Virus genome (UHGV): UHGV-0276305
Direction: 5' to 3' (one strand)
DNA from: a virus
Length of the DNA stretch: 36,129 nucleotides
Shown: in pieces, positions 20,616-27,616 of the stretch
Numbering within the stretch: position 1 is the first letter of the stretch
Layout of the letters: every line of letters starts with the position of its first letter
Program-made: the position numbers and the translations under genes
The notes under the pieces: model-generated
Database searches by the model: none
The model's input: only the letters and a program-made list of their open reading frames with translations
What the model was told of the DNA's origin: nothing

Positions 20616-20691
20616 TGGAGAATCCGAAGGGACTCGAACCCTTATAAACCTGTTTTGCAGACAGGCACATAGCCATTTCTGTCACGGATTC
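20616..20691 (-). tRNA. tRNA-Cys (GCA)
   Basis: hand-folded: 7-bp acceptor GAATCCG/CGGATTC, anticodon arm CCTGT-CTGCAAA-ACAGG, T-arm AAGGG-TTCGAGT-CCCTT, CCA encoded. Confidence 0.8.
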
Positions 20692-20695
20692 AAAT

Positions 20696-20788
20696 TGGAG
20701 GAAGATACCAGACTTGAACTGGTACACCGATTTCTCAGCTACTGGCAGTTTAGCAAACTGCTCCCTTACCTTTTAGGGTTAATCTTCC
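20696..20788 (-). tRNA. tRNA-Ser (GCU), long variable arm
   Basis: 93 nt; acceptor GGAAGAT/ATCTTCC, anticodon arm GCAGT-TTGCTAA-ACTGC, T-arm ACCAG-TTCAAGT-CTGGT, CCA encoded. Confidence 0.75.
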
Positions 20789-20789
20789 A

Positions 20790-21533
20790 TTATTTCTGTA
20801 ATGCGTTCTTCATTTCTGGTGTTGCAATAGTGTCAATCACACCAGTTTTACAAGCATCATCAAACCAGTCTGGTAAGATACCTGCTAAGAACCCATTGAT
20901 ATTCGTTTTAAGGTACTCTGCAATAAGAGCAGCTTCTTCTTCAATCATCTGCACAACTTCATCTGCATAAGCTGTAATCTTCGAAATACCTTCATTAATC
21001 TTACTAACAGCTTGGTTAGCTAAATCAGAAATAGTATCAAGACCTTTGTCAATAGCATCTTGTAAGTCACTTAATACACCATTAACACTATCTAGTGTAC
21101 TGTTCATCATGTCAATAGCTTTTTGACCATACTCTGTAGCAACACCCATGATACCACTGAATGGTGTACAACCAACTTGTTCTCCTGCTGCACCCATAAC
21201 ATTGGAATACCCCTTTGCTACCTGCATACGTGATGAAAACTCATCAATAGACTTTTGACCGTAGTCTGTCAGAGTTTTAGTAGTTGCTGTAGTGCTTGTA
21301 AGGCTTGTTGTAAAGCTGTTTAGAAGGACTGTTGTAAGTCCAGCAGCAACAAGTTTCTCCTTCATTGTAGGGTCTGTTACAGAACTAATAGAGCTTACAA
21401 GTGATGTAGAAGCAGCTACGGTTCCACCGAGAACTGCTGCACCAGTAATAAGCGGGTTAGAGAACCCTTTACCGGTTTTTAAGAGATTAAAAATCTCCTT
21501 ACCTTGTTCTGTCATCTCTTTCATTAAGCACCT
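20790..21533 (-). CDS. hypothetical protein embedded at edge of tRNA cluster
   Basis: ORF track gives 20790..21587, but the first 18 codons overlap a tRNA-like gene; start more likely the MKEM Met at 21533; hydrophobic N-terminal segment then Ala/Thr-rich and helical regions. Confidence 0.5.
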   Translation of the reverse strand, partial: RCLMKEMTEQGKEIFNLLKTGKGFSNPLITGAAVLGGTVAASTSLVSSISSVTDPTMKEKLVAAGLTTVLLNSFTTSLTSTTATTKTLTDYGQKSIDEFSSRMQVAKGYSNVMGAAGEQVGCTPFSGIMGVATEYGQKAIDMMNSTLDSVNGVLSDLQDAIDKGLDTISDLANQAVSKINEGISKITAYADEVVQMIEEEAALIAEYLKTNINGFLAGILPDWFDDACKTGVIDTIATPEMKNALQK

Positions 21534-21540
21534 TTGAAAT

Positions 21541-21617
21541 TGGTAGTCCAGTGGGATTTGAACCCTCTTCTCATGTTTTTCAGACACGCGCTTTAACCAT
21601 ATAAGCTACTTGGACTA
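21541..21617 (-). tRNA. atypical tRNA-like gene, anticodon GAA (Phe-like)
   Basis: perfect 7-bp acceptor TAGTCCA/TGGACTA, D-stem GCTT/AAGC, anticodon arm CGTGT-CTGAAAA-ACATG, T-loop TTCAAAT; but 2 extra nt between acceptor and U8 and an A-A mismatch in T-stem. Confidence 0.35.
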
Positions 21618-21622
21618 TAAAT

Positions 21623-21698
21623 TGGGGTGACCTACGGGATTTGAACCCGTATAGACCATGTTCACAGCATGGGTCATTACCATTTATGATAAGGCCAC
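21623..21698 (-). tRNA. tRNA-His (GUG)
   Basis: acceptor GTGGCCT/AGGTCAC, D-stem TCAT/ATGA, anticodon arm CCATG-CTGTGAA-CATGG, T-arm ACGGG-TTCAAAT-CCCGT, CCA encoded. Confidence 0.8.
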
Positions 21699-21704
21699 AT
21701 TTAA

Positions 21705-21724
21705 GGACTCTCGTAAGAACCCTT
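21705..21724 (-). promoter_or_regulatory. conserved ~20-nt motif (plus-strand GGACTCTCGTAAGAACCCTT) just upstream of tRNA-His
   Basis: near-identical copies at 25261-25281 and a diverged copy at 24326-24347, each a few nt upstream (in the transcription direction) of an RNA gene. Confidence 0.3.
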
Positions 21725-21729
21725 AGAAG

Positions 21730-21805
21730 TGGCAGCGGCATAAGGATTTGAACCTTAATAGGACAGCTTCAGAGACTGTTGCATTGCCAGTTATGCTATA
21801 CCGCT
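21730..21805 (-). tRNA. tRNA-Gln (CUG)
   Basis: acceptor AGCGGTA/TGCCGCT, D-stem GCAT/ATGC, anticodon arm ACAGT-CTCTGAA-GCTGT, T-arm TAAGG-TTCAAAT-CCTTA, CCA encoded. Confidence 0.75.
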
Positions 21806-21810
21806 AAATT

Positions 21811-21889
21811 TGGTACTCCATATCGGATTCGAACCGATACATAACACAGATTTTAAGTCTGGCCTCTCTGCCAATTGGAGTAATGGAGC
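21811..21889 (-). tRNA. tRNA with anticodon UAA (Leu by anticodon; short variable loop)
   Basis: 79 nt; acceptor GCTCCAT/ATGGAGT, D-loop AATTGGCAGAG (Leu-like), anticodon loop CTTAAAA, T-arm ATCGG-TTCGAAT-CCGAT, A73, CCA encoded; variable loop only about 7 nt. Confidence 0.6.
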
Positions 21890-21891
21890 AT

Positions 21892-21967
21892 TGGCGGGGG
21901 ATGTTGGAATTGAACCAACTTCTTCGATTTCAAAGACCGAGGTTTTAACCTTGTAAACTAATCCCCT
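21892..21967 (-). tRNA. tRNA-Gln (UUG)
   Basis: acceptor with 1:72 A-C mismatch, D-stem GTTT/AAAC, anticodon arm TCGGT-CTTTGAA-ATCGA, T-arm GTTGG-TTCAATT-CCAAC, CCA encoded. Confidence 0.7.
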
Positions 21968-21975
21968 TTAAATCT

Positions 21976-22533
21976 TTACTTTCTCAGTGGATGAATAAAG
22001 AATGCCAACATAACTCTTTCCCTTGAGAATGCTCTTTCTTCTGGGACAACACTTTTTAGTTTCCATCCAATATAAATTCTCCAGTAAAACTGTTTACCAA
22101 AGACTTTGATTGATGGGATAAAAGCGAATAATCCCCAAGCATTACTGTTCCACATTAGGAGATAACCAGTCTGATTATCTTCAGGGTTAGAACTTACGTT
22201 GATATTACCTTTCCACTTAGTAACATCTTTTACATCTCTTCCTAATACATGGTAAGAGAAGTTATAAGCTTTGTTTCTCCAGAGCCATCCAACTCTCTGC
22301 ATGTAGACACCAAGCTTACCAATCTTTCTAATCTTAGCCCATCTCTCAACGTGGCCTTTGTCACCATCAATAGGGTTGTCATAGGTCTCCATCCATCTGA
22401 ATCCAAAAGGTAGATGCCCTTTCTTCTCACTGTAGAATGGAACTACGAAAGGTGCTAAGATGACTGCTAGGGTTGCTGCAAATGGTTCTAACAAAGCTAA
22501 GAAAACCCATGAAGCATACTTCAAATATCTCAT
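21976..22533 (-). CDS. hypothetical membrane-anchored protein inside tRNA cluster
   Basis: 185-aa ORF between tRNA genes; hydrophobic N-terminus (WVFLALLEPFAATLAVILAPFVVPF), Trp/Lys-rich remainder. Confidence 0.55.
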   Translation of the reverse strand: MRYLKYASWVFLALLEPFAATLAVILAPFVVPFYSEKKGHLPFGFRWMETYDNPIDGDKGHVERWAKIRKIGKLGVYMQRVGWLWRNKAYNFSYHVLGRDVKDVTKWKGNINVSSNPEDNQTGYLLMWNSNAWGLFAFIPSIKVFGKQFYWRIYIGWKLKSVVPEERAFSRERVMLAFFIHPLRK

Positions 22534-22552
22534 CTAAATAGCCTCTTTAAAT

Positions 22553-22628
22553 TGGCGCAGGATAAGGGATTCGAACCCCTATTAACAGCTTCGTAGACTG
22601 TTGCTCTATCCATTTGAACTAATCCTGC
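22553..22628 (-). tRNA. tRNA-Arg (ACG)
   Basis: acceptor GCAGGAT/ATCCTGC, anticodon arm ACAGT-CTACGAA-GCTGT, T-arm AGGGG-TTCGAAT-CCCTT, CCA encoded. Confidence 0.8.
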
Positions 22629-22633
22629 AAAAT

Positions 22634-22711
22634 TGGTGTTCCAAGACGGATTCGAACCGTCACTAGTACAAGGTTTGAGCTTGCATCCTCTGCCAATTGG
22701 GATACTGGAAC
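22634..22711 (-). tRNA. tRNA with anticodon CAA (Leu by anticodon; short variable loop)
   Basis: 78 nt; acceptor GTTCCAG/TTGGAAC, D-loop AATTGGCAGAG, anticodon arm GCAAG-CTCAAAC-CTTGT, T-arm GACGG-TTCGAAT-CCGTC, A73, CCA encoded; variable loop about 6 nt. Confidence 0.6.
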
Positions 22712-22712
22712 A

Positions 22713-22787
22713 TGGTACTCACTAAAGGACTTGAACCTTTTTCTTCATCTTGTAAGGGTGATGTTTTACCATATAAACTAAGCGAGT
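22713..22787 (-). tRNA. tRNA-Val (UAC)
   Basis: acceptor ACTCGCT/AGTGAGT, D-stem GTTT/AAAC, anticodon loop CTTACAA, T-arm AAAGG-TTCAAGT-CCTTT, CCA encoded. Confidence 0.75.
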
Positions 22788-22790
22788 GTG

Positions 22791-22878
22791 AAAGAGGTCT
22801 GAAGTTGTGCCGCTAACTCAACTCCGTGGAATTTGTTACGGTCTTCAGTTGACACCAGCGGTCTTTCACTTGACCTCT
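22791..22878. ncRNA. structured spacer: ~88-nt extended hairpin between tRNA-Val and tRNA-Thr
   Basis: outer 7-bp pairing agaggtc (22793-22799) with gacctct (22872-22878), inner tgaag/cttca pairing; no canonical T-loop so not callable as tRNA. Confidence 0.3.
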
Positions 22879-22882
22879 GAAT

Positions 22883-22958
22883 TGGTGCTCCCACAAGGAT
22901 TCGAACCCTGATAAGTTGCTTACAAGGCAACCGTAATAGCCAATTATACGATAGGAGC
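22883..22958 (-). tRNA. tRNA-Thr (UGU)
   Basis: acceptor GCTCCTA/TGGGAGC, anticodon arm GTTGC-CTTGTAA-GCAAC, T-arm CAGGG-TTCGAAT-CCTTG, CCA encoded. Confidence 0.8.
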
Positions 22959-22965
22959 ATTAATT

Positions 22966-23040
22966 TGGAGCATCCAGAGGGAATCGAACCCTCAACCTCA
23001 GTTTGGAAGACTGTAATTTTCCCGTTTAAACTATGGATGC
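22966..23040 (-). tRNA. tRNA-Gly (UCC)
   Basis: acceptor GCATCCA/TGGATGC, D-stem GTTT/AAAT, anticodon loop CTTCCAA, T-arm GAGGG-TTCGATT-CCCTC, CCA encoded. Confidence 0.75.
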
Positions 23041-23046
23041 ACTAAT

Positions 23047-23122
23047 TGGTGGAGAAGCAGGGGATTGAACCCTGTACTTAAGTTTGCAAAACTTATGTTT
23101 TAACCATGTAAACTACATCCCC
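23047..23122 (-). tRNA. tRNA-Ala (UGC)
   Basis: acceptor GGGGATG with G3-U70 wobble, D-stem GTTT/AAAC, anticodon arm TAAGT-TTTGCAA-ACTTA, T-arm CAGGG-TTCAATC-CCCTG, A73, CCA encoded. Confidence 0.75.
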
Positions 23123-23128
23123 AATGTT

Positions 23129-23204
23129 TGGTACAGGTGGAGGGAATTGAACCCATCGTCTTACTGATTAAGAGTCAGCCGCATAACCATTTTGCTACAC
23201 CTGC
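23129..23204 (-). tRNA. tRNA-Lys (CUU)
   Basis: acceptor GCAGGTG/CACCTGT, anticodon arm GCTGA-CTCTTAA-TCAGT, T-loop TTCAATT with imperfect T-stem (ATGGG/CCCTC), CCA encoded. Confidence 0.65.
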
Positions 23205-23211
23205 ATTAATT

Positions 23212-23289
23212 TGGTAGGAGACAAGGGATTCGAACCCTCAAACACCAACTTCTAAGGATGGTAGGTTTACCAATTACCGTCAATCTCCC
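23212..23289 (-). tRNA. tRNA with anticodon UAG (Leu by anticodon; short variable loop)
   Basis: 78 nt; acceptor GGGAGAT/GTCTCCT, D-loop contains TAATTGGTAAA, anticodon loop CTTAGAA (stem has one T-T mismatch), T-arm GAGGG-TTCGAAT-CCCTT, A73, CCA encoded. Confidence 0.5.
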
Positions 23290-23364
23290 ATTAAATCTTT
23301 TTAGAGAACTTCTAAGAACCTAAGCAACAAGGTTCCACAACAAGCTGTAATAACCTTAGAAGCC

Positions 23365-23390
23365 CTCTAAAAAGACCTAAAAAGGTCTTT
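23365..23390 (-). terminator. terminator-like hairpin inside tRNA cluster
   Basis: minus-strand AAAGACC-UUUUUA-GGUCUUU then UUAGAG; U-tract partly within stem. Confidence 0.35.
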
Positions 23391-23547
23391 GCATAGTCTT
23401 GTTTAATCCGGTGACTAGAACCTTTGGAGAGCTTGATATTATCTCTTCTCCGTGACACCTACTAGGTGTTTTATCTGTGTGTACGACAATACACGAGGGA
23501 TAAACCGAAAATGCGAGCAAGCATGGACGGTGTAAAATCTTATTAGG

Positions 23548-23635
23548 CGGTAAGTAAAGGAGTCGAACCCTCACCGTATCTCTACAGTGGCAACTGTTTT
23601 CAAGACAGTTTGGCTACCATTAGCCGCTACCTACC
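23548..23635 (-). tRNA. tRNA-Ser (UGA), long variable arm
   Basis: 88 nt; acceptor GGTAGGT/ACTTACC, anticodon arm ACTGT-CTTGAAA-ACAGT, about 20-nt variable arm, T-arm GAGGG-TTCGACT-CCTTT; CCA not encoded. Confidence 0.7.
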
Positions 23636-23648
23636 CCTAATAAGACTT

Positions 23649-23731
23649 TGGCATGGGACGGAGGAGTTGAACCACTTTGAAACGGTTTTGGAGGCCGTTG
23701 CTCATGCCTTAGAGTCTTAACATCGTCCCAC
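23649..23731 (-). tRNA. atypical tRNA-like gene, anticodon CCA (Trp-like)
   Basis: 83 nt; acceptor GTGGGAC/GTCCCAT, anticodon loop CTCCAAA on ACGGC/ACCGT stem, CCA encoded; D region about 7 nt too long and T-stem AGTGG/CCTCC has 2 mismatches. Confidence 0.4.
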
Positions 23732-23868
23732 ACTATAATTCGAAGCTTACCGTATTATCTCAACACTGTAAAGCCCCTTCTCAGATTATTTACATGTTCT
23801 GGAAAACATGAGATACAGACCACCTCCTTACACGGAGACCCGATAAGGTCGTCTAAGCAATCTGCTAA

Positions 23869-24216
23869 CTAATACTTTGCATGTCTTACCCTATGGCAAT
23901 TTGAACATAGCAAAACACATTTGTCAAGTTCATCTTTTAGTTCTTGAGAGAACTTCAGACTTTTTCTATGACCAATGTTAAAATCTTTCTCTGAAGGATT
24001 CAAATGATGGAAGTCATACACTGCTGGATGATACCTTTTACCACAATCATGACAAACCCCACCTTTGTACTCAATAGCTGAAAGTTTAAGTGCTCTTTGT
24101 CTTTCTATGGTTTGCTCATTAACACACTTTTTACAGTATGAATGAGTTCTCTTACCATCTTTCATGTAGAAATCATTTTCATCCTTGCTAAGTTTGCACC
24201 TAATACAAGTTTTCAT
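23869..24216 (-). CDS. HNH homing-endonuclease-like protein
   Basis: about 116 aa from MKTCIRCK (ORF-track N-terminal extension overlaps a tRNA-like gene); CxxC..CxxC zinc-finger-like N-terminus and HNH core (YDFHHLNP ... N ... LLCSNCHRVRH). Confidence 0.8.
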   Translation of the reverse strand: MKTCIRCKLSKDENDFYMKDGKRTHSYCKKCVNEQTIERQRALKLSAIEYKGGVCHDCGKRYHPAVYDFHHLNPSEKDFNIGHRKSLKFSQELKDELDKCVLLCSNCHRVRHAKY

Positions 24217-24230
24217 GATTTCTCCAAAAT

Positions 24231-24312
24231 TGGTCGAGGCGGCAGGACTCGAACCCGCATACTCCACTTACTCGGTTAACGGCGGTTTAGAAGACCGCTG
24301 AGATACGCCCCG
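24231..24312 (-). tRNA. atypical tRNA-like gene, anticodon UCU (Arg-like)
   Basis: 82 nt; acceptor CGGGGCG/CGCCTCG, canonical T-arm GCGGG-TTCGAGT-CCTGC, CCA encoded, perfect anticodon arm GCGGT-CTTCTAA-ACCGC; no recognisable D-arm and an extra 23-nt segment before the T-arm. Confidence 0.4.
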
Positions 24313-24325
24313 TAATTATCTTTAA

Positions 24326-24347
24326 AGACTCTCTTAGAAAGCCCTTA
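24326..24347 (-). promoter_or_regulatory. diverged copy of the conserved ~20-nt motif, just upstream of the Arg-like tRNA
   Basis: plus-strand agactctcttagaaagccctta versus ggactctcgtaagaaccctta at 21705. Confidence 0.25.
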
Positions 24348-24649
24348 AAGATGCCCACTTTATTAATCATACCGTGGGCTAGTACGCCAAATTCTTTGAT
24401 GAGGGATTGGAAGACCTCACTGGTGTTTAGCCTATCAAGCTACTGCCAGAAAAACATTGTCGTTTGCATTTATTTTAAATTTGCAAAATAGACGCTACGC
24501 AACGAAAACTATTCAGAATATGTACAACAAATTTCCCCACATTGTGTTACGTCTAACGCTCATGTATTGGTGTTTGAATTATACATATTATGAAGTATTT
24601 TAGTTACTATAAAGTGGTCACATCTCAATGTCAACAACTTTATTGAAAT

Positions 24650-24725
24650 TGGTACTGGTAGGTGGAATCGAACCACCGATGTTCCCTTATCAGGGGAGTG
24701 TTATAACCTTCTTAACTATACCAGC
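24650..24725 (-). tRNA. tRNA-Ile (GAU)
   Basis: acceptor GCTGGTA/TACCAGT, D-stem GTTA/TAAC, anticodon loop CTGATAA, T-arm GGTGG-TTCGATT-CCACC, CCA encoded. Confidence 0.75.
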
Positions 24726-24726
24726 T

Positions 24727-24803
24727 TGGAGGTTCAGATGGGAATCGAACCCACATTCATAGGGCTTATGAGACCCTTGCATTACCTTATCTGCGACTGA
24801 ACC
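24727..24803 (-). tRNA. tRNA-Met (CAU)
   Basis: acceptor GGTTCAG/CTGAACC, anticodon arm AGGGT-CTCATAA-GCCCT, T-arm GTGGG-TTCGATT-CCCAT, CCA encoded. Confidence 0.75.
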
Positions 24804-24807
24804 ATTT

Positions 24808-24883
24808 TGGTAGAAGTGGAGGGATTCGAACCCATCGCCTGTCAGATTAAAAGTCTGCCGCATCACCATTCTGCTACACTTCC
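24808..24883 (-). tRNA. tRNA-Lys (UUU)
   Basis: acceptor GGAAGTG/CACTTCT, anticodon loop CTTTTAA, T-loop TTCGAAT with same imperfect T-stem as tRNA-Lys(CUU), CCA encoded. Confidence 0.65.
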
Positions 24884-24887
24884 ATTA

Positions 24888-25031
24888 AATTATCTTTGTA
24901 GATAAGCTACCCAGACTTGCTTAAGGTCTGTAGCGATGTGCCTTTTTGGGTTTAAATCTAGAATTTACCCTTTCACCCTTTGTGGTCGCATACTCACAGG
25001 TAAGCTTAATAACTTATCTACAAAGATAATT
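24888..25031. repeat. 19-bp perfect inverted repeat flanking a ~106-bp core (long-stem structured element)
   Basis: 24888-24906 (aattatctttgtagataag) is the exact reverse complement of 25013-25031; core contains further short hairpins. Confidence 0.6.
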
Positions 25032-25032
25032 A

Positions 25033-25163
25033 CCAGACCGTTGTTTATCATCTTAAGTGCTACCATTACACCAACTCGACATCTGCCGAGTGAAGGAATC
25101 GAACCTTCGCCTTTTCTTTACCGAGAAATAGATTGTTTAAGTTTTGCTGTAAACGGTCTTCTG
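25033..25163. repeat. repeated spacer element copy A (ccagacc ... gtttgctg-N-ggtcttctg), contains a tRNA 3' fragment
   Basis: shares 5' ccagacc and 3' ttgctgNaaNggtcttctg with three other copies. Confidence 0.5.
25084..25108 (-). pseudogene. tRNA 3' fragment (T-arm plus acceptor 3' strand), no matching 5' half found
   Basis: GAAGG-TTCGATT-CCTTC T-arm followed by ACTCGGC; no complementary GCCGAGT within 100 nt upstream. Confidence 0.35.
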
Positions 25164-25176
25164 TAAATTTGTTGAG

Positions 25177-25250
25177 CCAGACCAAGTTTTAAATTTTTCA
25201 AAATTAAATTGGCTTGAAATTTTAAGTAACTTGCTGTATTTGGTCTTCTG
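25177..25250. repeat. repeated spacer element copy D
   Basis: ccagacc at 25177-25183 ... cttgctgtatttggtcttctg ending 25250. Confidence 0.5.
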
Positions 25251-25260
25251 CTCCTTTAAA

Positions 25261-25281
25261 GGATACTCGTAAGAACCCTTT
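25261..25281 (-). promoter_or_regulatory. second copy of the conserved ~20-nt motif (plus-strand GGATACTCGTAAGAACCCTTT)
   Basis: matches 21705-21724 at 18 of 20 positions; lies just upstream (in the transcription direction) of spacer copy D. Confidence 0.3.
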
Positions 25282-25311
25282 AAGGGAGGGGCTAAATAGC
25301 CCTCTCAAAAT

Positions 25312-25389
25312 TGGCGGTTACGAAGGGATTTGAACCCTCATCATCTCCCGTGACAGGGGAGTATTTTAACCAAATTAAACTACATAACC
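25312..25389 (-). tRNA. tRNA-Asp (GUC)
   Basis: acceptor GGTTATG/CGTAACC, D-stem GTTT/AAAT, anticodon arm CTCCC-CTGTCAC-GGGAG, T-arm GAGGG-TTCAAAT-CCCTT, CCA encoded. Confidence 0.8.
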
Positions 25390-25394
25390 TTTAT

Positions 25395-25482
25395 TGGTGT
25401 GCCGTGTAGGAGTCGAACCTACCGAGTCTCAATGACAAGGGATTTACAGTCCCCACCGCTACCATCTACGGGATAACGACAC
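25395..25482 (-). tRNA. tRNA-Tyr (GUA), long variable arm
   Basis: 88 nt; acceptor GTGTCGT/ACGGCAC, anticodon arm GGGGA-CTGTAAA-TCCCT, about 15-nt variable arm, T-arm GTAGG-TTCGACT-CCTAC, CCA encoded. Confidence 0.75.
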
Positions 25483-25551
25483 ATTTAATTTCTATTCAGG
25501 CTAAGGACTTGCACCTTACAAATCGGTGAGCAATTGCTTCTCTCCTAAATT

Positions 25552-25628
25552 TGGCGGTTAGTCAGGGATTCGAACCCTGTGCCATTCGCTTAACAGGCGA
25601 CCGCACATACCTTATGTGCTTCCTAACC
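25552..25628 (-). tRNA. tRNA-Asn (GUU)
   Basis: acceptor GGTTAGG/ACTAACC (one mismatch), D-stem GCAC/GTGC, anticodon loop CTGTTAA, T-arm CAGGG-TTCGAAT-CCCTG, CCA encoded. Confidence 0.75.
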
Positions 25629-25639
25629 TTAATACATTG

Positions 25640-25699
25640 CCAGACCGTGTTTTTTCTTTTATCCGCAAAAAGTAGTTTGTTGCTGAATACGGTCTTCTG
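25640..25699. repeat. repeated spacer element copy B
   Basis: ccagacc at 25640-25646 ... gtttgttgctgaatacggtcttctg ending 25699; directly abuts the 3' end of the next tRNA. Confidence 0.5.
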
Positions 25700-25705
25700 C
25701 AAAAT

Positions 25706-25782
25706 TGGAGGCGGGTGCAGGAGTCGAACCTACCGATACCATGCTAATGAGACATGTGAGACGCCCTTTCTCTATACCCGCA
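25706..25782 (-). tRNA. tRNA with anticodon CAU (Met, initiator or Ile2; unresolved)
   Basis: anticodon arm CATGT-CTCATTA-GCATG, T-arm GTAGG-TTCGACT-CCTGC, CCA encoded; position 1:72 unpaired (T-C) and 3 nt between acceptor and D-stem. Confidence 0.6.
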
Positions 25783-25793
25783 ATTCTTAATGA

Positions 25794-25866
25794 CCAGACC
25801 AAATCTCTTCTTTGTCCGATTTCGTGTCAGATGAATAAGATTAAGTTTGCTGCAATTGGTCTTCTG
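25794..25866. repeat. repeated spacer element copy C
   Basis: ccagacc at 25794-25800 ... gtttgctgcaattggtcttctg ending 25866. Confidence 0.5.
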
Positions 25867-25873
25867 TCAAAAC

Positions 25874-25951
25874 TGGCGTTCCAGAAGGGATTTGAACCCT
25901 CAAATATCCACTTTGAAAGAGTGGTGACTTTACCGTTTTGTCTACTGGAAC
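25874..25951 (-). tRNA. tRNA-Glu (UUC)
   Basis: acceptor GTTCCAG/CTGGAAC, anticodon arm CCACT-CTTTCAA-AGTGG, T-arm GAGGG-TTCAAAT-CCCTT, CCA encoded. Confidence 0.8.
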
Positions 25952-25958
25952 ATTAATT

Positions 25959-26035
25959 TGGTCTCTGTTGGAGGACTTGAACCTCCGGCCTTACCGCCCC
26001 AAACGGAACGCTCTACCAAGCTGAGCTAAACAGAG
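25959..26035 (-). tRNA. tRNA-Pro (UGG)
   Basis: acceptor CTCTGTT/AACAGAG, D-arm GCTC-AGCTTGGTA-GAGC, anticodon loop TTTGGGG, T-arm GGAGG-TTCAAGT-CCTCC, CCA encoded. Confidence 0.8.
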
Positions 26036-26200: not shown

Positions 26201-27616
26201 TTACCAGATATAACGGTCAATCATTACTGCTTTGAGCATTACACTAATTGGGTCAAACTTCTCACCACCAAGCAGAGCTTTTAAAGTGGCTGGAGAGAAA
26301 CCAGATACCATTGCTACACCGTTATCCTTAACAGATACTTCGCAAGTGCCATTACGGTTTGCTAAGTACCAGAATACCAGTTGTGGCATCTCATATCCAG
26401 CTTTTTTGTACTTACTCTGAATTGCTTCAAAGTTTGTACGACCGTTAGCTCCATCAACCTGATTGAACTCCATATCAGAGAAGATGATAAGCTTACTTGG
26501 CATATCTTTCTGAGTCAAGTTATTTCTCTTACCTGTCTCAAGAATGCGGTCAAAAGCTGCTTGTAAGTTAGTTGAACCGTATTCAACATGACGCATTACC
26601 TGACGATGACGGTTTCGTAAATCACCACTCAGTTCAATGAAGTGAGGGTTTGTTGAATAAACCATCAACTCATTCTTAAAGCAACCTGTATTACGTTCTG
26701 CTACATACAATGCAAGTGAAACACCAATATCAAGAGCAGTAATTGAACCAAAATTCACCCAAGACATTGAACTTGAAACATCAGACATACATAGAATGTT
26801 TTCACCCTCTGCCATCCAGTTTGGTAGTGCTTTCCACTGCTCATTAGCAACATCTGCATTACCATACTTAACAGATTTAATCACATCGTATGGGTAAACA
26901 GCACCAGCATTAATCTTAGTCTCACCCTTTGATAAGGACTCGATGTAAGCTTTGTAGCGTTCTCCATCTTTACGGTTAAACAGTTTTTGGTAACGTGCAG
27001 CAGCAAGTGAAGGAATCTTACTGTAGTCAATCTTACCAAACTCATTAGCAGAGATTTTTTGCTCAACTGTATCAGATAGTGCAGACAACAGTGTGCGGTA
27101 CTCTTTCTCACTCAAGTTGGCAAACTTACAGAAACGTTTTACAAACTGTTTGTGACGTGGTTTTACTCGTGGTAACCACTTAGCTGCTAAACCTGCTGTT
27201 GCAGGGTCTAGTAAAGCTGCTTCTAAATGTTTGAAGGCATCTGTCTCGAAACGAGTACCTACAAAGATTTTGAAGTCATCAAAGCGACCAAGCTCTGCAA
27301 TCTTATCCATAATGCGAAGAACCTGCGTAGGCTCTAAAACTTTATCTTCAATCGCTTGAAGTAAAACAGTTCGGAAAGCTTTACGCTCACCCATACCTTC
27401 TCGTACATCTCGCATATGCAGTAAAATACGAACTGCAACATCAGCATCCTCATGCAAAGCTTTGTAGAACAAGTCTGGTAAGATTTCTACATTGCTACGG
27501 CTAGAACCAGCAGCTTTGTAAAAGTCTACAAGAGCAGACATTGATGAAGTATGGTTTACAGCACCATTTTCAGTTCGACCTGCATGAAGGTGCGCATGTT
27601 TAAATAATTCGCTCAT
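26201..27616 (-). CDS. vWA-domain protein with N-terminal helical domain (candidate Ro60/TROVE-like RNA-binding protein)
   Basis: 471-aa ORF; C-terminal half has MIDAS-type DxSxS (MSDVSSSMS) and downstream T and D positions (GSTNL, LIIFSDMEFN) typical of vWA folds; N-terminal about 250 aa predicted helical; Ro60 relationship is inference from architecture and genomic context. Confidence 0.6.
   Translation of the reverse strand: MSELFKHAHLHAGRTENGAVNHTSSMSALVDFYKAAGSSRSNVEILPDLFYKALHEDADVAVRILLHMRDVREGMGERKAFRTVLLQAIEDKVLEPTQVLRIMDKIAELGRFDDFKIFVGTRFETDAFKHLEAALLDPATAGLAAKWLPRVKPRHKQFVKRFCKFANLSEKEYRTLLSALSDTVEQKISANEFGKIDYSKIPSLAAARYQKLFNRKDGERYKAYIESLSKGETKINAGAVYPYDVIKSVKYGNADVANEQWKALPNWMAEGENILCMSDVSSSMSWVNFGSITALDIGVSLALYVAERNTGCFKNELMVYSTNPHFIELSGDLRNRHRQVMRHVEYGSTNLQAAFDRILETGKRNNLTQKDMPSKLIIFSDMEFNQVDGANGRTNFEAIQSKYKKAGYEMPQLVFWYLANRNGTCEVSVKDNGVAMVSGFSPATLKALLGGEKFDPISVMLKAVMIDRYIW

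Follow-up and report, generated by a model that had tools for sequence, protein, structure and literature searches.

Type I tRNALeu, in which an unpaired variable loop stands in the place of the long variable arm of type II tRNALeu, is already known from animal mitochondria and Streptomyces coelicolor. The type I tRNALeu(CAA) of S. coelicolor has a variable loop of 5 nucleotides (nt) and coexists with type II tRNALeu and a single leucyl-tRNA synthetase (LeuRS); this case, the sole exception among bacteria to have been characterized biochemically, was presented as rare (PMC6614811). The same study gave a 5-nt variable loop as the minimum for leucylation and found nt 48 to be indispensable (PMC6614811). 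The animal mitochondrial tRNALeu(UUR/CUN) species are likewise without the long arm, and their identity elements include A73 and A14 (PMC9976931). E. coli LeuRS depends on A73, A15-U48, G18G19, A20a, and contacts between the D and T arms, and requires neither the anticodon nor the long arm (PMC9976931). In engineered arm-deleted E. coli tRNALeu (Asahara 1993/1998, Tocchini-Valentini 2000, and Larkin 2002, as summarized in PMC9976931), loss or alteration of the arm was tolerated by E. coli LeuRS if A73 and the D/T tertiary contacts stayed. Here, we describe three tRNA-Leu genes with short variable loops and the anticodons UAA, CAA, and UAG in the virus genome UHGV-0276305, a stretch of 36,129 nt that is hereafter called the window. 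On the basis of sequence comparison and of analogy with the systems above, we consider it very probable that the three genes encode functional leucine-accepting tRNAs of type I architecture.

ARAGORN placed the three genes at coordinates identical to those of the original prediction, which had also described their lengths (78–79 nt) and variable loops (5–7 nt) correctly. The variable region, measured identically for every tRNA of the array to which the genes belong, is 7 nt in Leu(UAA) (GUUAUGU), 6 nt in Leu(CAA) (ACUAGU), and 5 nt in Leu(UAG), the last base being U48 in each case, and 4–6 nt in the remaining tRNAs of the array other than tRNA-Ser and tRNA-Tyr. The tRNA-Ser and tRNA-Tyr genes do have long arms, as had been predicted (Table 1). 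A type II tRNALeu has a stem-loop variable region of more than about 10 nt, and the regions of 7, 6, and 5 nt contain no stem. All three genes fit the structural definition of type I tRNALeu, namely a leucine anticodon at positions 34–36 of a 7-nt anticodon loop (CUUAAAA, CUCAAAC, and CUUAGAA, for UAA, CAA, and UAG, respectively) and an unpaired variable loop of at least 5 nt including nt 48. Leu(UAA) has a G1.U72 pair, a 3-bp D stem, an 11-nt D loop CAAUUGGCAGA, and a C27.U43 mismatch. Leu(CAA) has G1-C72 and the same D arm, with the D loop CAAUUGGCAGA, while Leu(UAG) has G1.U72, one extra D-arm nucleotide (a U in the D loop), and a U30.U40 mismatch in the anticodon stem. The T loop UUCGAAU is common to the three genes, and A73 followed by an encoded CCA is found in all of them; the Leu-like D-loop strings and A73 quoted in the original prediction are thus present in the sequence.

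The covariance-model check that had been proposed gave no sign of a hidden long arm or a shifted anticodon. With Rfam RF00005, all three genes scored above the gathering score of 29 as full-length matches (1–71) with the arms in order; the model agreed with ARAGORN on the anticodon positions and left 5–7 nt ahead of the T stem. In the Rfam alignment of Leu(UAG), the acceptor register was moved by one base, taking up the extra D-arm nucleotide. This register was rejected, because that of ARAGORN yields G1.U72, A73, and CCA like the other tRNAs of the array.

Table 1. Features of the window; positions are counted from its first letter, and tRNA lengths include the encoded CCA
Feature	Coordinates	Strand	Length (nt)	Source and remarks
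Type I tRNA-Leu(UAA)	21811..21889	(-)	79	ARAGORN; Rfam RF00005, 47.5 bits
Type I tRNA-Leu(CAA)	22634..22711	(-)	78	ARAGORN; Rfam RF00005, 43.6 bits
Type I tRNA-Leu(UAG)	23212..23289	(-)	78	ARAGORN; Rfam RF00005, 40.0 bits
Comparator tRNA-Ser(GCU)	20696..20788	(-)		ARAGORN; variable arm 21 nt
Comparator tRNA-Ser(UGA)	23546..23635	(-)		ARAGORN; variable arm 20 nt
Comparator tRNA-Tyr(GUA)	25395..25482	(-)		ARAGORN; variable arm 15 nt; under Rfam gathering score
tRNA-Met(CAU), one gene	25706..25782	(-)		ARAGORN; under Rfam gathering score
tRNA array, 25 genes including the three Leu genes	20616..26035	(-)		ARAGORN; every gene with encoded CCA
tRNA-like gene (UCU)	24231..24312	(-)	82	Rfam only, 31.7 bits; missed by ARAGORN
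471-aa open reading frame	26201..27616	(-)		Pfam matches DUF2828 and DUF7788

The three genes were aligned with leuZ (UAA), leuX (CAA), and leuW (UAG) of E. coli MG1655, which have the same anticodons, a 3-bp D stem, an 11-nt D loop, U48, and A73 (leuZ also has G1.U72). The E. coli genes are 85–87 nt long and carry a stem-loop variable arm, whereas 8–10 nt are missing from the variable region of the phage genes, and this is the sole substantive difference between the two sets. U8, the 3-bp D stem, U48, the T loop, A73, and CCA are common to both, as is the D-loop pattern xAAUyGGyAkA, in which A14, A15, G18, and G19 are invariant. U8, A14, A15, and U48 occur in all three window genes, at columns that are invariant in the alignment, and would allow the U8:A14 and A15-U48 pairings together with docking of G18G19 on the T loop (U54, U55, C56, and A58). 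The recognition set reported for E. coli LeuRS is kept whole in the three genes. Since bacterial LeuRS ignores the anticodon and, according to the E. coli studies, needs no long arm, and the features that it reads are kept, the type I architecture should be able to work. The engineered arm-deleted tRNALeu are laboratory constructs, whereas the phage genes show the same design in natural conserved genes. The mitochondrial tRNALeu differ more: they are weak, AT-rich, partly unfolded, and served by their own LeuRS, while the phage tRNAs have a canonical elbow with G18G19 and the T loop GTTCGAATC.

In the mechanism that we propose, the three tRNAs would be transcribed within the phage tRNA array, with 3′ ends whose CCA is encoded in the genome, and would be charged with leucine by the host LeuRS, as has been reported for a homolog (see below). 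In the absence of a long arm, the enzyme would read A73 and the tertiary core, that is, U8:A14, A15-U48, G18G19 on the T loop, and the Leu-type D loop. The UAA species would decode UUA and UUG, the CAA species UUG, and the UAG species CUA and CUG and perhaps further CUN codons. The 767 Leu codons in the open reading frames (ORFs) of the window, the G+C content of which is 39%, are distributed over UUA (29.3%), CUU (28.6%), CUA (13.2%), CUG (11.3%), UUG (11.1%), and CUC (6.5%), and the phage has the Leu anticodons UAA, CAA, and UAG and no CAG. In E. coli, CUG accounts for about half of the Leu codons, and CUA is rare. We infer that the anticodon set has the pattern expected of decoders for the phage's own codon usage.

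Several points weigh against functional leucine acceptance. With E. coli LeuRS, no leucylation of the type I S. coelicolor tRNALeu(CAA) was obtained, and the enzyme was described as one "which only charges type II tRNALeu" (PMC6614811). All three window genes score below most of their array neighbors on the general tRNA model, Leu(UAG) combines an irregular D arm with its U.U mismatch, and Leu(UAA) has the C.U mismatch. The S. coelicolor tRNA differs from the phage tRNAs in several respects. It is the product of an essential chromosomal gene and has C48, while the phage tRNAs are encoded by phage genes and have U48; it is served by an actinobacterial LeuRS, the LSD domain of which is reportedly required, while the phage tRNAs would be served by an enterobacterial LeuRS. 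The C48 of S. coelicolor tRNALeu(CAA), compared with U48 facing A15 in the phage tRNAs, may explain the failure of E. coli LeuRS.

Evidence from the T5-like phage OSYSP (MF402939.1) bears on the same question. ARAGORN found only two tRNA-Leu genes in the whole OSYSP genome, UAA and UAG, each 77 nt long with CCA and with a 5-nt variable loop, and the Leu(UAG) gene is about 84% identical to that of the window. Anticodon-swapped tRNALeu(YGA) from this phage served to build a swapped genetic code (Nyerges et al. 2023, as later summarized by its authors in Hu et al. 2026, PMC13596443). In the summary, a tRNALeu(CGA) derived from OSYSP and used in E. coli is said to be one that "decodes TCG codons as leucine"; the type I architecture of the tRNA is not mentioned in the passages searched. 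Because the swapped tRNA decodes as leucine and the tRNA-Leu genes of OSYSP are all type I, this analogy implies that, in living cells, the E. coli machinery can attach leucine to a phage type I tRNALeu scaffold. The OSYSP tRNALeu(YGA) has a changed anticodon and is expressed from the chromosome, whereas the window genes are in their native phage form. Taken with the identity set and the alignment to leuZ, leuX, and leuW, the short-type OSYSP homolog favors the class-I-like Leu tRNAs that the original prediction had offered as one of its two readings.

In order to find further phage tRNALeu of this type, IMG/VR was scanned with a pattern made up of the D loop, the anticodon loop, and the T loop that admitted a short variable region only, and the genes in the matches (at least 120) were confirmed by ARAGORN. 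The scan yielded at least 146 distinct short-arm tRNALeu from at least 102 viral loci. Among the matches listed, to which the counts from the IMG/VR scans in this and the next paragraph also refer, A73 was present in 139 of 146 genes and the last base of the variable loop was U in 146 of 146, although neither was imposed by the pattern. A14 was invariant, A15 was conserved to at least 90%, the D loop was 11 nt long in 119 of 146, and 60 genes had G1.U72. The variable loop was 5 nt in 131 of the 156 short-arm genes counted before duplicate removal. Loop length varies continuously, with 131 genes at 5 nt, 15 at 6 nt, 8 at 7 nt, 15 at 8–12 nt, and others longer, and the 7-nt and 6-nt loops of the window lie within this range. 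In an alignment of 148 sequences (147 distinct short-arm tRNALeu from viral contigs, three isolate phages, and the window), 97.4% of the cells in the cloverleaf stems were paired and 20 of 20 pairs had changes on both sides; slid-register controls gave 36–47% paired cells.

A second IMG/VR scan with the same pattern, which admitted either arm length, gave at least 120 matches, comprising 35 loci already found by the short-only pattern and 85 long-only loci. A short gene was carried by 27 of the 111 loci with an ARAGORN-confirmed tRNA-Leu (24%), and the share of the sampled viral tRNA-Leu loci with the short form is 24–29%, an estimate limited by the pattern. The premise of the original prediction that phage tRNA-Leu are normally class II holds only in part. 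Loci of about 9 kb had a median of 9 tRNAs when they carried a short-arm gene and 3 when they were long-only. In the same viral loci, tRNA-Ser was long in 114 of 115 cases and tRNA-Tyr in 46 of 50, while tRNA-Leu was divided among short (138), intermediate (14), and long (152) forms, so the loss of the arm is specific to Leu. Among isolate phages, Aeromonas phage AhP_Mru1 (Demerecviridae) and Lactobacillus phage LpeD (Herelleviridae), which belong to unrelated groups, have UAA, CAA, and UAG species, each of them short. BLAST of isolate genomes also detected the short form in the Tequintavirus phages slur09 and OSYSP and many relatives, in Providencia and Proteus T5-like phages, in the Vequintavirinae 4MG, GAP31, KB57, SSE121, and GEC_vB_MG, in several Vibrio phages, and in Xanthomonas phage X1. 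With the Leu(UAG) of the window as the query, copies about 84% identical over 73 nt were found in many T5-like phages, including OSYSP and slur09. Type I tRNALeu is far commoner in phages than the literature suggests.

A single origin and repeated loss of the arm were compared by means of nearest neighbors and core identity. The core identity was 0.58–0.60 between short forms and 0.54–0.59 between short and long forms; the short and long forms of phages are about equally diverged. Both architectures occur within Tequintavirus, as seen at one slot after the tRNA-Ala gene: T5 has a normal 85-nt type II tRNALeu(UAG) there (L004 9625-9709), whereas slur09 (L338 7997-8073) and OSYSP (L339 11997-12073) have 77-nt type I genes with the same anticodon. 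Since the T5 gene and the slur09/OSYSP genes are too different outside the arm, the difference looks like a gene replacement rather than a simple deletion.

Conservation among close relatives was also considered. Since the best matches of its tRNA region are Escherichia phage SP22 and Salmonella phage Felix O1, the window is a segment of a Felixounavirus (Ounavirinae) genome; the 5.6-kb region has matches in 409 phage records, with SP22 (96.8%) and Felix O1 (95.5%) at the top. Of 264 phage records with a match to Leu(UAA), 216 carry it at an identity of 99% or more. The array itself varies by 3–5% (about 95–97% identity) among the 30 best-matching records, which indicates that Leu(UAA) has not been kept by chance. 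Leu(UAG) is more variable: the Felix O1 copy is 88.5% identical to that of the window, and the differences are concentrated in the anticodon stem. This stem is CCAUC/GUUGG in the window, with the U30.U40 mismatch, UCUCG/CGAGA in Felix O1, tootiki, and FSL SP-010, and CCUCG/CGAGG in GEC_vB_B1. Four pairs differ between the window and Felix O1, three of them on both sides; U30.U40 is replaced by C30-G40, so that every pair of the stem is formed in Felix O1. The D arm of FSL SP-010 has a U-to-C change that is matched by an A-to-G change opposite. These compensatory changes are a signature of selection for a folded RNA.

Besides the window, slur09 and OSYSP (both T5-like) and GEC_vB_MG (Vequintavirinae) have the U30.U40 mismatch in their tRNALeu(UAG) (the window gene in Table 1, the slur09 gene given above, and L337 6001-6077). 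This sharing suggests that the gene or its anticodon arm has passed between families of coliphages, and the mismatch possibly has a function.

The loss of the arm is most simply explained without selection for it. If LeuRS does not use the arm, deletions would be tolerated, and the loop would shrink to the 5-nt floor. SerRS, the seryl-tRNA synthetase, needs the long arm, and the same reportedly applies to bacterial TyrRS, the tyrosyl-tRNA synthetase; the phage tRNA-Ser and tRNA-Tyr would keep their arms because these enzymes need them. That the loss was instead selected, as a counter-defense or portability trait, seems unlikely to us. In such a case, type I tRNALeu would be unseen by nucleases and toxins of the host or of competitors that recognize long-arm tRNAs, would not be confusable with tRNASer or tRNATyr in any host, and would provide a defense-proof, host-independent supply of decoders for the Leu codons UUA and CUA, on which the phages depend. 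Selection would explain why tRNA-rich phages so often have the short form even when their families are unrelated, why the type II copy was replaced at one slot within the T5 genus, and why a phage-derived tRNALeu outperformed cellular tRNAs in an engineered genetic firewall.

A related alternative is that the tRNAs serve mainly as decoys or replacements against tRNA-directed defense nucleases or toxins of the host, translation being secondary. Phage tRNAs are reported to evolve away from host defense RNases (PMC13596443, with references there), the toxin MenT3 is reported in abstracts to prefer tRNA-Ser, and the U30.U40 mismatch of Leu(UAG) is common to three phage families. However, the anticodon set fits the phage's own codon usage, and the elements that govern charging are conserved, although a pure decoy could do without them. 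No nuclease of enterobacteria that singles out tRNALeu or long-arm tRNAs is known to us, and we regard a main role of this kind as improbable.

A second alternative, also raised in the original prediction, is that the tRNAs with Leu anticodons are charged with another amino acid; the phage would then recode or mistranslate Leu codons. LeuRS, SerRS, and the alanyl-tRNA synthetase ignore the anticodon, natural identity swaps on Leu anticodons are known (PMC7609411), and the failure of E. coli LeuRS on one type I tRNALeu (PMC6614811) could be taken in the same sense. The sequences do not bear this out. The alanine mark G3:U70 is absent from all three genes (the 3:70 pairs are U-A, U-A, and G-C), and so are the serine marks, the discriminator being A rather than G73 and the long arm being absent. 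Synthetases that read the anticodon would refuse UAA, CAA, and UAG. Moreover, the full leucine identity set is kept across at least 146 relatives, leucine insertion by the homologous scaffold is reported for E. coli (PMC13596443), and since the type II tRNALeu of the host would read the same codons at the same time, a different identity would entail ambiguous decoding in hundreds of phage lineages. A different identity is therefore highly improbable. That the genes are decaying, nonfunctional pseudogenes of tRNA-Leu that have lost the variable arm has next to no likelihood, since the lower Rfam scores and the stem mismatches in two of them are outweighed by the near-identity of Leu(UAA) within a diverging array, by stems kept paired through compensatory changes both in Felixounavirus and across the short-arm alignment, and by the retention of the invariant tertiary positions and the encoded CCA.

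In our full-text literature searches, which do not prove that none exists, no paper describing short-arm tRNALeu in phages was found, save for one sentence on a mycobacterial tRNA cluster (PMC6582537), and the word "phage" does not occur in a review of non-canonical tRNAs (PMC7609411) or in the S. coelicolor study (PMC6614811). In GenBank, the genes are already labelled tRNA-Leu. The three genes of the window are natural examples of type I tRNALeu from a classic enterobacterial phage. If enterobacterial LeuRS charges the phage tRNAs, as the OSYSP result implies, the limit stated for the E. coli enzyme needs to be revised, and the rule that tRNALeu is always type II needs a footnote for phages and Actinomycetota. 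The tRNAs would also offer compact, naturally orthogonal-looking scaffolds useful in genetic-code engineering. Tools that score isotypes may flag short-arm tRNALeu as odd or as pseudogenes.

Short forms were also observed on bacterial chromosomes. On genome contigs, the short-arm pattern gave many spurious matches, 76 of the 120 containing no short-arm tRNA-Leu by ARAGORN, and only ARAGORN-confirmed Leu genes were used; most of the unconfirmed matches that were inspected proved to be tRNA-Lys matched in a shifted register. Many Actinomycetota have one type I tRNALeu standing alone on the chromosome, with the anticodon UAA, CAA, or UAG, a variable loop of 5 nt, and the D loop CAAUUGGCAGA; among them are Nocardia, Rhodococcus, Mycobacterium, Gordonia, Corynebacterium, Bifidobacterium, Amycolatopsis, Pseudonocardia, Arthrobacter relatives, and Herbiconiux (loci L214, L216, L225, L231, L233, L240, L245, L252, L253, L259, L264, L267, L271, L280, L288, L291, and others). 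The D loop of these actinobacterial relatives is the same as that in the UAA and CAA species of the window. The actinobacterial genes are near-identical across genera, with compensatory changes in the acceptor stem, and their flanking proteins are common within an anticodon group. Judging from these sequences, the actinobacterial short form looks like a vertically inherited housekeeping feature that extends well beyond the CAA case of S. coelicolor. Short tRNALeu are also present in Acidobacteriota arrays (L222 with 29 tRNAs and L242 with 25) and in an Asanoa array (L235 with 17).

The array of the window is also present in Felix O1 and about 400 related records, and ORFs of function unknown with DUF7217 and DUF7338 lie between its tRNA genes. 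The tRNA-Tyr gene of the array bears a pseudogene flag in the Felix O1 RefSeq record and is named "tRNA-Pseudo-GTA" in LMP phages. Three phages of 85–87 kb, REP6 (OQ174505), REP10 (OQ174509), and REP11 (OQ174510), match the tRNA genes of the window; Leu(UAA) is identical in REP6 and REP10, and Leu(UAG) is 89.7% identical in REP11. The REP series is reported to consist of isolates obtained on recoded E. coli, which these phages infect by expressing a viral tRNA-Ser(UGA) (PMC13596443). Both the expression of such arrays and their importance for infection have therefore been shown already. The 471-aa ORF directly upstream of the array has a counterpart named "RNA-binding protein" in Felix O1 and FG1m, and its place beside tRNA and tRNA-like genes suggests an RNA-related role.

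The tRNA-like gene inside the array (Table 1) carries no annotation in nearly all of the relatives. Its acceptor stem has 7 bp, and the place of the D arm is taken by an invariant 7-nt linker UAUCUCA. The anticodon loop is CUUCUAA (UCU, reading the Arg codon AGA), the variable region of 23 nt hardly varies, and a T arm, A73, and an encoded CCA are present. BLAST matches were obtained in 263 phage records from unrelated groups, the carriers being Felixounavirus, Klebsiella T5-like and jumbo phages, E. coli jumbo phages, phi92-like phages, Pectobacterium phage POP12, and Streptomyces and Campylobacter phages. Among seven diverse copies, 97.5% of the cells were paired and 10 pairs were changed on both sides; folding of the single sequence was uninformative (z = 0.04). 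AGA accounts for 53% of the Arg codons in the window, and among the tRNAs of the phage there is no canonical tRNA-Arg(UCU). From its sequence, the gene may encode a functional, structurally aberrant tRNA-Arg.

Long variable arms were also encountered on unusual anticodons. About 17 viral loci carry tRNAs of 90–96 nt with the Ile anticodon UAU and a long variable arm, in the loop of which the motif CAGAU(U/A)A is conserved (for example, L003 3296-3387, L028 4203-4294, L032 264-354, L070 4722-4815, L100 7585-7680, and L187 4811-4905). Scattered long-arm calls were made for Asn, Cys, Thr, Trp, His, and Val as well, some of which may be ARAGORN artefacts, and the Ile(UAU) group is recurrent, showing a type II shape on an anticodon other than those of Leu, Ser, and Tyr.

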